Source: Clostridia bacterium
GTDB taxonomy: Bacteria > Bacillota > Clostridia > TANB77 > CAG-508
Direction: 5' to 3'
DNA length: 64,000 bases
Assembly (NCBI GenBank): GCA_017626365.1
Contig: JAGAIV010000013.1
Location: forward strand, 6,826 to 70,825
Shown here: positions 41,989 to 44,138 of the stretch, piece by piece
How positions within the stretch are numbered: the first letter of the stretch is position 1
How the letters are laid out: the number at the start of each line of letters is the position of its first letter
Notes under the pieces: model-generated
Told to the model about the DNA's origin: nothing
What the model saw: only the letters and a program-made list of their open reading frames with translations
Database searches by the model: none
Position numbers and translations under genes: made by a program

Positions 41989-42144
41989 TTGACACTAATT
42001 TAAAAATGTATTATAATTCAGTCTCAAGGAAAAAGAGAAATGGAAACGAACATTACTTTGAGTGTAATGACTAACGAACAACACATATTGATGTGTTGTT
42101 TTTGTTTGTTAAAAGTTGTATTAAAATTAGGAGGAAAAAAATGA
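41989..42144 (+). promoter_or_regulatory. promoter TTGACA-17-TATAAT plus a leader with two hairpins and a 34-codon leader ORF (42040..42144) whose TGA overlaps the MATE ATG
   Basis: Hairpin 1 at 42051-42069 (cattac/gtaatg). Hairpin 2 at 42077-42100 (aacaacacat/atgtgttgtt plus T-run, terminator-like) lies inside the leader ORF (…NEQHILMCCFCLLKVV…). Confidence 0.45.
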
Positions 42145-44138
42145 AACAATTAGATTTAGGAAAAGAAAAAATAGGAAAACTACTAATGGCATTCTCAGTA
42201 CCATGTATTATTTCATTAGTAGTAAATGCTTTATATAACATGGTTGATCAAATATTTATTGGTTGGGGAGTAGGGTATTTAGGAAATGGAGCAACAAATG
42301 TTATATTTCCTATTACTGTATTATGTATGGCATTTGCATTAATGTTTGGTGATGGCGCATCAGCATATCTAAGTTTAAAATTAGGAGAAAAAAAGGAAAA
42401 AGAAGCACAAGCAGGAGTGGTAAATGGAATAATAGCATCTATTATTATATCAGTTGTATTAGGTGTATCTATTTTAATATTTCTACCAAACTTAATTACT
42501 ATTTTTGGAGGAACAGATACCTTAAGAACGTATGCATTGGACTATGGATATATTATTGTAATAGGAATACCATTTATGATGATAGCTACAACTTTAAACT
42601 CTATTATAAGAGCAGATGGTTCACCCAAATATGCAATGATATCAATGATTATTGGAGCAATTTTAAATATTATATTAGACCCAATTGCAATATTTGTATT
42701 CGATATGGGAATTAAAGGGGCAGCACTTGCAACTATCATAAGTCAATTTGTTAACTTTTTAATAAATGCAATATACTTAAAGAAATTTAAAACAATAAAA
42801 ATAACAAAAGAAAGCTTCAAACCATCTTTTAAAATAATGAGAAATGTTGGCATGCTAGGAATATCATCCTTTATTACACAAATGGCAATTGTTATAGTAA
42901 TAACAGTAGAAAACACATTGTACAATATATATGCACTAAGCAGTAAATTTGGTGCAGAAATTCCAATTACGGTACATGGCATTGTTATGAAAATAAATAT
43001 GATATTAACTAGTATTATTATAGGAATTGCAGCAGGAAGTCAACCAATTGTTGGGTATAATTATGGGGCCAAAAAATATGAAAGAGTGAAGAAAACATTA
43101 AAATTAGTATTAGGAATTAGTACAATTGTATCAACAATATCTTTTATATTATTCCAAACAATACCAGAAGCATTAATTAGTATATTTGGTTCTGGAGATG
43201 AATTATATAATGAATTTGCCTGTTTAACATTTAGAATTTTCTTAATGTTAACAATATGCAATGGAATTCAAATTGCATCTGGTATATTCTTTCAAGCAAT
43301 AGGAAAACCAACCAAATCTGCATTTATCACATTATCAAGACAAATTTTATTTTATACGCCACTAGCAATTATATTATCTAAATTCTATGGAGTAATGGGA
43401 GTATTATATGCAGGACCAGTAGCAGATTTATTTGCATTTATGATATCAGTAATTTTCCTAATAATGGAAGTTAAAAAATTAAATAAATCAGAAAGAAAAG
43501 ACGATTTACCAAAAGAAGAACAAGCAATAATCGAAGAAAAAGCTAACATTATTATAACTATTAACAGAGAATATGGCTCTGGAGGAAGATATGTAGGAAA
43601 GCTACTTGCTAAAAAACTAGGTATCAGATTATATGATAAAGACTTAATTATGATGGTATCAAATGAAAGTGGTTTATCGGCTTCCTATATAGAAGAAAAT
43701 GAACAAAACGTAACAGGAAAATTACTTGCAAACTTTAATTCACAATATTATAACAACTTATCAAATGATGACAATTTATTTATTGCAGAAAGTAATGCTA
43801 TTAAAGAAATTGCTAAAAAAGGTTCTTGTATTATAATAGGAAGATGTGCAGATTATGTTTTAAAAGATGAAAAAAATGTATTTAAAATTTTCTTATATAG
43901 TGATGATGAAAACAAAGTTGCAAGAGCTGTAAAATATTATGGATTAGAAGAAAAAACAGCTCTAAAACAAATAAATAAAATAAACAAAGCAAGACAAAAA
44001 CATTATAACTATTATACAGGACAAGATTGGAAAGATTTAGATTATTATGATTTTAGTATCAATGTAGATAAATTCGGAGTAGAAAAAACAGTAGAAATGA
44101 TTGAAAAAATGGTAGTAGATTGTAAGGTTAAAATTTAA
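42141..44138 (+). CDS. MATE-family efflux transporter fused to a C-terminal cytidylate-kinase-like (AAA/P-loop) domain
   Basis: 12-TM MATE core of about 450 aa, then a charged linker, then INREYGSGGRYVGKLLAKKLG...DKD P-loop domain of about 200 aa. The ATG at 42141 follows ggagg. Confidence 0.65.
   Translation: MKQLDLGKEKIGKLLMAFSVPCIISLVVNALYNMVDQIFIGWGVGYLGNGATNVIFPITVLCMAFALMFGDGASAYLSLKLGEKKEKEAQAGVVNGIIASIIISVVLGVSILIFLPNLITIFGGTDTLRTYALDYGYIIVIGIPFMMIATTLNSIIRADGSPKYAMISMIIGAILNIILDPIAIFVFDMGIKGAALATIISQFVNFLINAIYLKKFKTIKITKESFKPSFKIMRNVGMLGISSFITQMAIVIVITVENTLYNIYALSSKFGAEIPITVHGIVMKINMILTSIIIGIAAGSQPIVGYNYGAKKYERVKKTLKLVLGISTIVSTISFILFQTIPEALISIFGSGDELYNEFACLTFRIFLMLTICNGIQIASGIFFQAIGKPTKSAFITLSRQILFYTPLAIILSKFYGVMGVLYAGPVADLFAFMISVIFLIMEVKKLNKSERKDDLPKEEQAIIEEKANIIITINREYGSGGRYVGKLLAKKLGIRLYDKDLIMMVSNESGLSASYIEENEQNVTGKLLANFNSQYYNNLSNDDNLFIAESNAIKEIAKKGSCIIIGRCADYVLKDEKNVFKIFLYSDDENKVARAVKYYGLEEKTALKQINKINKARQKHYNYYTGQDWKDLDYYDFSINVDKFGVEKTVEMIEKMVVDCKVKI

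Follow-up and report, generated by a model that had tools for sequence, protein, structure and literature searches.

Leader-peptide attenuators of the ermC, ermB, cat and cmlA type place a short open reading frame (ORF) and a hairpin between a promoter and a resistance or efflux gene, and the same layout is seen in the stretch of Clostridia bacterium DNA analysed here (64,000 nucleotides of contig JAGAIV010000013.1, referred to below as the window), immediately upstream of a gene for a MATE efflux pump that is joined to a cytidylate-kinase-like domain. The initial annotation had read this leader as an attenuator of that type, in which ribosome stalling on the leader ORF induces the pump. Comparison with related leaders points elsewhere: the leader contains a conserved cis-regulatory RNA whose class appears to be undescribed and is most probably that of a riboswitch acting as an ON switch, and we would put the probability of this reading at about 0.6.

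Among small riboswitches, preQ1-I consists of a minimal hairpin with a conserved A/C-rich 3′ tail that is shared with the expression platform, forms an H-type pseudoknot between conserved loop nucleotides and the tail, and has no conserved 5′ segment. The tail layout of the RNA in the window is alike, but its loop is variable, its 5′ strand is conserved, the genes that it precedes are unrelated to queuosine and it has no Rfam match. The HMP-PP riboswitch (thiS motif; PMC6478431) is also a very small, terminator-embedded aptamer in which sensor and platform share sequence, as they do here; it differs in sequence, in its thiamin-biosynthesis context and in polarity, and the RNA of the window appears to work also with platforms that would sequester the Shine-Dalgarno (SD) sequence. 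The closest functional analogues are guanidine-IV (the mepA motif) and Gd4v, ON switches with a terminator platform that lie 5′ of MepA-like MATE genes in Firmicutes, Gd4v being enriched in gut metagenomes and having no known ligand (PMC7736828, PMC9788692). Common to these and to the window leader are a small RNA in the 5′ untranslated region (UTR), a MepA-like MATE gene, and a hairpin followed by a terminator, the ON direction being in our case a prediction. The architecture is nonetheless different: guanidine-IV and Gd4v have conserved loop bases that form an inter-hairpin pseudoknot, and their bound structure includes the terminator stem, whereas in the present motif neither loop is constant in sequence or length, the conserved bases lie in the unpaired flanks of a hairpin that we call P1, and the aptamer would compete with the 5′ arm of the terminator. 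The regulons differ as well, with sugE, GNAT and transaminase genes in guanidine-IV/Gd4v and DUF2798 genes here. Identity with guanidine-IV or Gd4v is ruled out by this architecture and by Rfam 15, in which neither the window leader nor a DUF2798 leader has a match at the gathering threshold or even at E ≤ 10. At gathering, the motif is likewise unmatched in 34 related loci, and the window as a whole contains no Rfam family, be it a tRNA, a riboswitch or a leader of a known class. In the literature that we searched we found no description linking DUF2798 to a riboswitch, and no mention of MATE-associated candidates of this kind in those surveys of new motifs and of gut motifs that we consulted.

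The conserved RNA is about 50 nt long and has the form (A/U)UGGAAACG-N-A, then the covarying hairpin P1, then A(N)UAACGAACAACAC. In the window it is made up of three adjoining segments:

42040..42050, + strand: unpaired conserved 5′ segment AUGGAAACGAA, in which GAAACG is invariant in the family (alignments A1 and A3)
42051..42069, + strand: hairpin P1, in which CAUUAC (42051-42056) pairs with GUAAUG (42064-42069) around a variable loop (42057-42063)
42070..42084, + strand: linker ACU and the invariant 3′ tail AACGAACAACAC, the proposed 3′ half of the aptamer

The unbiased evidence for invariance comes from loci that were fetched through their proteins. Eighty genome loci (numbered with the prefix L) were collected by homology to the pump protein, and in the 170 nt upstream of their pump starts a block recurs that reads ATGGAAACG-N-ACA, hairpin, A(N)TAACGAACAACAC, loop, GTGTTGTTTTT, while the intergenic sequence around it is not conserved. 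Covariance model R1 recovers the motif in 38 of the 80 loci, one copy each and just 5′ of the pump gene, and matches the window at 42035-42108 with 81 bits; the aptamer-only model R2 matches it with 61 bits, and the window has a single copy. The aptamer is carried by 33 of the protein-fetched loci, with one weaker match in addition. An alignment of 25 distinct pump leaders (A1) has no variation in GAAACG, in the CA...TG with which P1 begins and ends, or in most of AACGAACAACAC, and the hairpin has compensatory changes.

Covariation in P1 was assessed in a 52-sequence core alignment (A3), where 97.2% of the P1 cells are paired and four of the six pairs have compensatory changes. None of 500 shuffles reaches the observed score; because kinship among the sequences inflates such shuffle statistics, the slid controls, in which 25-55% of cells are paired, are the fairer comparison. 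An alignment of metagenome sequences only has 91.9% of its P1 cells paired. The helix ranges from 5 to 11 bp across the family and is the one structure that RNAalifold predicts, which argues that the conserved flanks are unpaired.

Metagenomes were scanned with a pattern for the two conserved strands and then with model R2 (at least 120 stretches). Among the matches listed, R2 accepted 66 of the 100 metagenome loci tested, at 49-69 bits and well clear of noise, and the 116 pattern matches include 74 that precede DUF2798 genes and 33 that precede MATE genes, the remainder having arisen by chance, having a DUF2798 start that was miscalled, or having no identified ORF downstream. Instances of the motif number at least 100 overall; the orientation is always sense, immediately 5′ of the gene and with one copy per locus, and the gene that follows encodes either a MepA-like MATE transporter or a DUF2798 membrane protein. 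A position in the 5′ UTR, in sense, of two non-homologous families is a generic mark of riboswitches. Most of the metagenome instances precede proteins of about 160 residues matching DUF2798 (PF11391), whose sources are named Ruminococcus sp. and Oscillospiraceae, and one cluster of these proteins has 1937 members on at least 1000 contigs. Protein similarity, searched among plasmid and chromid records, pointed to a cultured carrier, Lachnospira eligens ATCC 27750, in which the motif lies at approximately 93728-93775 of NC_012780.1 (R2, 53 bits), just 5′ of EUBELI_RS10915. The lineages with the motif are Lachnospiraceae, Oscillospiraceae/Ruminococcus and low-GC metagenome-assembled genomes (MAGs) labelled Clostridia, Bacilli or Tenericutes, and the GC content of the matched motif sequences runs from 0.2 to 0.5. 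Neither the motif nor any Rfam family is present at the DUF2798 genes of Treponema, Collinsella, Brevibacillus, Lactococcus and Enterococcus.

The DUF2798 leaders have an additional 5′ element, in which a semi-conserved AAUAUGGU, 3-5 nt and an invariant A precede UUGG, 5-8 nt 5′ of UUGGAAACG (for example L093:3895-3905); this element is weak or absent in the clade of the window. In L099 and L125 a MATE gene lies directly after the motif-controlled DUF2798 gene and convergent to it, 700-2100 nt 3′ of the motif.

The distribution of the motif bears on an account in which the leader has no regulatory function, the hairpin simply terminates the upstream RimO-like gene (40677-41984; UPF0004, Radical_SAM and TRAM domains) and the similarity among leaders is due to shared ancestry. 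There is no other terminator between the rimO stop codon (41984) and the hairpin, which therefore probably ends rimO read-through too. The hairpin is, however, separated from rimO by a perfect promoter; the motif persists where pump proteins are 70-80% identical, whereas the flanking intergenic DNA does not; and the motif also precedes an unrelated gene family in unrelated genomic contexts. An account by the rimO terminator alone thus appears to be contradicted already, and we give it hardly any credence.

Besides the conserved RNA, the leader of the pump gene contains the following elements:

41989..42017, + strand: sigma-70-type promoter, with TTGACA (41989-41994), a 17-nt spacer and TATAAT (42012-42017)
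42076..42108, + strand: intrinsic terminator, with stem 42076-42086 / 42091-42101, loop AUUG, then UUGUUUG
42129..42143, + strand: Shine-Dalgarno sequence AGGAGG (42129-42134) and pump start codon ATG (42141-42143)

The promoter, already recognised in the initial annotation, matches the consensus at 12 of 12 positions and is the only perfect match that a promoter scan finds in 41500-44600; transcription is expected to start near 42024, and relatives have a -35/-10 pair at comparable spacing 5′ of the RNA motif. The terminator stem has 11 pairs and the DNA loop ATTG, with TTGTTTGTT directly after the stem at 42101, and a scan finds three terminator-like sites in the region where 0.5 would be expected. 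The last 8-9 nt of the 3′ tail double as the 5′ arm of the terminator in the window, and in MATE leaders, the window included, the invariant tail is embedded in that arm with its last 8-10 nt. Because the tail is conserved also in DUF2798 leaders that have no terminator, its conservation belongs to the sensor and not to the terminator. Aptamer nucleotides that form the 5′ side of a terminator stem, such that the ligand blocks the terminator, are the usual design of an ON switch (PMC7736828).

We propose that transcription from the consensus promoter yields a leader whose first ∼60 nt would fold as a small aptamer, composed of P1 and its two unpaired flanks. With no signal, the last 8-10 nt of the 3′ segment would pair with AUGUGUUGUU, the terminator would form and the pump gene would not be reached; with the signal present, the 3′ segment would be held in the folded aptamer, the terminator would be blocked and the MATE-kinase-like protein would be made. 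Both the binding of a small molecule or ion and the direction of the switch are features that we infer.

In the DUF2798 leaders, a few of which use terminators (L126, L136, L127 and L167), the P1 loop and 5′ arm carry a CUCC-type sequence complementary to the SD, and a downstream UUAUCAU is complementary to the P1 3′ arm plus linker. In the off state the SD would pair with the P1 5′ arm and loop and UUAUCAU with the 3′ arm and linker, and in the on state folding of the aptamer would free the ribosome-binding site. In minimum-free-energy folds the SD is paired with the P1 region in 44 of 49 DUF2798 leaders, and P1 is absent in 32 of the 34 that could be evaluated. The platform pairs with its own aptamer at -17.1 kcal/mol, as compared with -14.3 for non-cognate and -7.6 for shuffled partners, and does better with its own in 34 of 44 cases (Wilcoxon p = 4e-6). 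Because the default is off in both platforms and folding turns the gene on, an ON switch is predicted. The RNA therefore combines a covarying helix, highly conserved unpaired bases on either side of it, and expression platforms that cannot coexist with the folded aptamer, and one sensor joined to two platforms and two unrelated membrane-protein families is a riboswitch signature.

A substantially different regulator would be a drug-stalled ribosome, as in the model of the initial annotation, which involves one further feature of the leader:

42040..42144, + strand: leader ORF of 34 codons, encoding the peptide METNITLSVMTNEQHILMCCFCLLKVVLKLGGKK

This ORF is present exactly as it had been quoted, and its TGA (42142-42144) does overlap the pump ATG (42141-42143) as ATGA; the hairpin inside it is also present, although its limits, given as 42077-42104, are corrected to a stem at 42076-42101. 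In the stalling model a ribosome arrested by a drug on the 34 codons would remodel the leader and relieve termination, as in erm and cat, and the ATGA would couple translation to the pump. The window taken by itself is consistent with this: its ORF starts with ATG, has a weak AAGGA 8 nt 5′ of that codon, runs through the terminator and ends at the pump start. When translation from the equivalent of 42040 is compared among 31 related leaders, however, the ORF varies from 6 to 34 codons, its ATG is missing in eight (TTG in three, TTA in five), there is no conserved SD in the 20 nt upstream, and the stop codon lies 27-188 nt 5′ of the pump ATG in all leaders but that of the window, to which the overlap is unique. 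Conservation of the leader peptide therefore fails, since identity at the peptide level is limited to M/L-E-T-x-[ITM]-[IT], which is the RNA motif itself. The differences in P1 length are not multiples of three, so that the invariant bases farther 3′ are read in a frame that differs among leaders or come after a stop codon; and within ATG-GAA-ACG-NAC variation affects the first position of a codon and never the third positions, a pattern that reflects RNA conservation and is the opposite of that expected for coding.

The hallmarks of erm/cat-type systems, namely a conserved leader peptide, a conserved start site and an alternative 2:3 pairing, are thus not seen across the relatives of the window. 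There is no complementarity between the P1 3′ arm GUAAUG and the terminator 5′ arm AACAACACAU, and because P1 covaries (CAUUA, CACUA, CAUGA) while the terminator arm stays invariant, the P1 3′ arm is excluded as a conserved antiterminator partner. On these two observations we reject a classical 1:2 / 2:3 / 3:4 attenuator, and the lack of conservation of ORF length, ATG, SD and frame counts against a leader-peptide attenuator. The same RNA in front of DUF2798 genes usually has UUG in place of AUG, is often free of a terminator, and would act there by SD sequestration with no such ORF. We judge that the 34-codon ORF is probably incidental to the RNA motif; stalling appears largely refuted by the leader comparison, and we consider it very improbable. 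What stands of the attenuator proposal is a promoter-proximal terminator of conserved sequence before the pump gene. For annotation, the lesson is that a chance ORF over a structured RNA can mimic a leader-peptide attenuator.

Several points weigh against reading the conserved RNA as a riboswitch. The shuffle statistics are inflated by phylogenetic relatedness, as noted above, and the metagenome pattern required the conserved tails, which makes their invariance in that sample partly a matter of construction. Absence from Rfam and from open-access text does not prove novelty. The aptamer is small, and gene context gives no ligand, since no substrate is known for either of the regulated protein families. 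The exclusivity of the SD helix and P1 derives from unconstrained folds only, and constrained folds of the bound state are not cleanly free of SD pairing, with weak A/U pairs forming. Five relatives (L009, L013, L014, L020 and L058) have kept the AACAACACAU...AUGUGUUGUUUUU hairpin, some 60-100 nt upstream of the pump start and farther in L058, while having lost the GGAAACG/P1 half (R2 below 18 bits); in them the element seems to have decayed or to have been remodelled, which would imply that the regulation is dispensable or can work differently. Finally, P1 alone has covariation support, and long invariant single strands also resemble a protein-binding site; neither RNAalifold nor a mutual-information scan found a pseudoknot or tertiary pairing that would explain both strands.

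The search for such a pairing compared all positions of the 5′ and 3′ conserved regions with each other, and the mutual information gave clade-confounded signals only. Three contacts considered by eye, between UGG and the linker, a 2-bp CG:CG contact hinted at by the CCGAACAAAC variant, and between the 5′ GGAAACGA and the U-tract, have no usable covariation. In L005, L007, L028 and L033 the tail ACUAACGAAC becomes (C/U)CGAACAA(A/G)C, with the CG dinucleotide 3 nt nearer to P1; from this shift one might suspect a CG:CG contact of 2 bp that involves the 5′ AAACG, a suggestion that is speculative and without statistical support.

These last points lend themselves to an alternative in which what binds the RNA is a trans-acting factor (an antiterminator, a translational regulator or another RNA) that chooses between the terminator or SD helix and the P1 fold. 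In its favor, the two long invariant unpaired segments contain a near-repeat, AAACGNACA 5′ of P1 and UAACGAACA 3′ of it, a single helix has covariation support, and a tertiary pairing was looked for and not found. Yet the motif occurs in distant lineages and in motif sequences that differ widely in GC content (0.2 to 0.5), no conserved regulator gene is nearby, the DUF2798 genes being mostly monocistronic with unrelated neighbours, and two unrelated platforms on one sensor are typical of riboswitches. We therefore consider a trans-acting factor unlikely, and prefer the riboswitch.

Some orthologues of the pump are under other control. In those from Lachnospiraceae and Oscillospiraceae (L061-L080) there is a MarR-like gene, and one or two copies of the palindrome TTAGAATTCTAA lie upstream of the pump, such that a protein-operator circuit seems to replace the RNA motif. 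Two other loci have a skipping-rope RNA (RF02924; L034:2762-2843 and L050:2763-2844, 74 and 71 bits) about 140 nt 5′ of the MATE-kinase-like gene, and that of L034 has its own promoter and terminator and is followed by a second promoter for the pump gene.

Another way to view the conserved RNA is that the promoter-proximal transcript of ∼80 nt is itself a trans-acting small RNA (sRNA), whose position before the pump is incidental. Promoter and terminator together would release a short stable RNA, and L034 and L050 provide a precedent in the separate skipping-rope sRNA gene, with promoter and terminator of its own, 5′ of the pump. On the other hand most DUF2798 instances are terminator-free and run straight into the SD and start codon, and the motif without exception directly precedes, in sense orientation, a gene of one or the other of the two families, so that we regard an sRNA as highly unlikely in comparison with a riboswitch.

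As to the signal for the proposed riboswitch, a natural guess is that the trigger is a toxic compound exported by both the pump and DUF2798. Guanidine-like cations would be the first candidates to consider, because mepA-like MATE genes belong to the guanidine-IV regulon. Orthologues under other control, whether by the MarR-like protein and TTAGAATTCTAA or with skipping-rope, and the motif-free DUF2798 genes, gave no clues to the ligand. The fuller proposal would be that of a new riboswitch class with a ∼50-nt aptamer (UGGAAACG-N-A / P1 / AUAACGAACAACAC), common in human-gut Firmicutes, which induces putative exporters of the DUF2798 and MepA-like MATE families, the latter here fused to Cytidylate_kin2, and is triggered by a gut-relevant compound or ion that has had no known sensor so far; taken as a whole this is tentative, and we would place it just short of even odds.

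The pump gene of the window extends from the ATG at 42141 to a stop codon at 44136-44138 and encodes 665 residues. The ORF lister had given GTG 42093 as its start; homologues begin at equivalent MKQ/MEK residues, in agreement with ATG 42141. The protein has three parts:

42141..43487, + strand: MATE transporter core, DinF/MepA-like, with 12 hydrophobic helices (residues 1 to ∼449; Pfam, hydropathy, AlphaFold2 and Foldseek)
43488..43550, + strand: charged and probably flexible linker KSERKDDLPKEEQAIIEEKAN (residues ∼450-470)
43551..44138, + strand: C-terminal Cytidylate_kin2 (PF13189) domain with REYGSGGRY, then the stop codon

This division, which had been recognised from the translation, is borne out by Pfam, hydropathy and AlphaFold2. 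MatE (PF01554) matches in two stretches with E = 2e-37, and Cytidylate_kin2 at residues 471-644 with E = 1.5e-50 (172.3 bits, where the cut-off is 28, over all 176 positions of the profile). Hydropathy has twelve distinct peaks between residues 14 and 442 and none beyond 442. The AlphaFold2 model, of moderate confidence (mean predicted local distance difference test score, pLDDT, 71.6), consists of a helical core and an alpha/beta domain joined by a disordered linker (449-467, pLDDT below 50), and is uninformative as to whether the domains dock. The two MatE repeats, twelve helices and MATE fold together place the core in the MATE family; Foldseek finds DinF-BH (4lz6/5c6n) at 34% identity and also PfMATE, with which the core has the 12-helix fold in common (4lz6, 5c6n, 3vvn, 6fhz), and the nearest NCBIfam models, PRK09575, FepA and MepA, are all far below their cut-offs. 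To our knowledge none of the solved MATE transporters has a C-terminal soluble domain, unlike the pump of the window. The termini of MATE transporters are cytoplasmic in the solved structures, which places the kinase-like domain on the cytoplasmic side.

The closest structures to the C-terminal domain are 3hdt (Clostridium symbiosum, 'putative kinase'; E = 2.6e-37) and 3fdi (Eubacterium ventriosum, 'uncharacterized protein'; E = 7.9e-28), with target-normalised Foldseek TM-scores of 0.85-0.87. Both carry RE(Y/F)GSGG(R/H) as the window domain does, but they are stand-alone proteins of ∼200 residues with no assigned function, whereas the window domain is tethered to a transporter. REYGSGGRY is invariant in 19 homologues of the domain and lies within the segment (domain residues 19-46) matched by the beginning of the shikimate-kinase profile (positions 2-29). 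Shikimate kinases have G-x-G-K-S/T in that region, and because GSGGRY stands in its place we infer that the Walker-A Lys-Ser/Thr of GxxxxGK[ST] is missing. The cytidylate-kinase-like signature is thus present as the GSGGR of PF13189, and the lysine and serine or threonine of true nucleoside monophosphate kinases appear to be absent; the domain scores 39.1 bits with the archaeal (d)CMP kinase equivalog TIGR02173, for which the cut-off is 102.1. Because of this missing Walker-A pair, the domain may be read as a regulatory module binding a nucleotide or phosphate, or as one that handles substrate, rather than as a proven or canonical kinase.

The fusion itself is an ordinary architecture, although functionally uncharacterised, and the pairing of cytidylate-kinase-like and MATE proteins is not described in the literature that we searched. 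In a search of 5.8 billion proteins, MatE with Cytidylate_kin2 forms more than 120 clusters at ≥70% identity, some of them on hundreds of contigs and named just 'MATE family efflux transporter'. By tblastn about 50 close relatives, which are MAGs labelled Clostridia, Clostridium sp., Bacilli or Tenericutes, encode both parts in a single frame, and four close relatives (L051, L052, L056 and L060) have the MATE part by itself. The kinase-like protein has a gene of its own, directly 3′ of the MATE gene, in Lachnospiraceae, Oscillospiraceae and others, the order in L075 (2397-4997) being a MarR-like gene, MATE (460 residues), a 33-nt gap and a PF13189 protein of 202 residues. That two genes conserved as a pair are fused in one lineage speaks for MATE and PF13189 being functionally linked. 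The domain had been described as normally stand-alone, which is broadly right, in that it has 9225 representatives at E ≤ 0.001, mostly stand-alone and of ∼200 residues, this being the length of the majority of the best 150; yet transporter fusions recur, and Cytidylate_kin2 is fused C-terminally also to MFS_1 (P0245, P0182) and DUF6198 (P0138, P0153, P0210, P0232). Fusion to three unrelated families, MATE, MFS and DUF6198, suggests that PF13189 may be a general cytoplasmic accessory module for transporters.

Two features lie downstream of the pump gene in the window, which has a GC content of 29%. At 44219-44330 (+ strand) an ORF-free segment contains a promoter-like site with 11 of 12 matches (44219-44247) and then a hairpin with a T8 run (44303-44330); its fold is no better than that of shuffled sequences (z = -0.71), and it may simply belong to a region of bidirectional termination that separates the pump gene from feoB. 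The FeoB-like gene (44572-46675, - strand) appears to be split into two overlapping ORFs, a G-domain (45371-46675) and a membrane part (44572-45405), which could reflect a frameshift, a pseudogene or an assembly error.

New riboswitch classes have historically exposed unknown biology, such as the responses to fluoride, guanidine and Li+/Na+ toxicity. For the RNA described here a search for the ligand is feasible, since the motif is abundant in the human gut, has two ON-switch designs and is present in a culturable type strain, L. eligens ATCC 27750. If the riboswitch reading is correct, the ligand would assign a function to the orphan membrane-protein family DUF2798, and possibly also to the PF13189 module attached to the transporter. 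It would be informative as well for a MATE subgroup and the 'cytidylate kinase-like' family; in a recent atlas both rank among the families of gut colonization factors for which most homologs were detected (PMC13601570).

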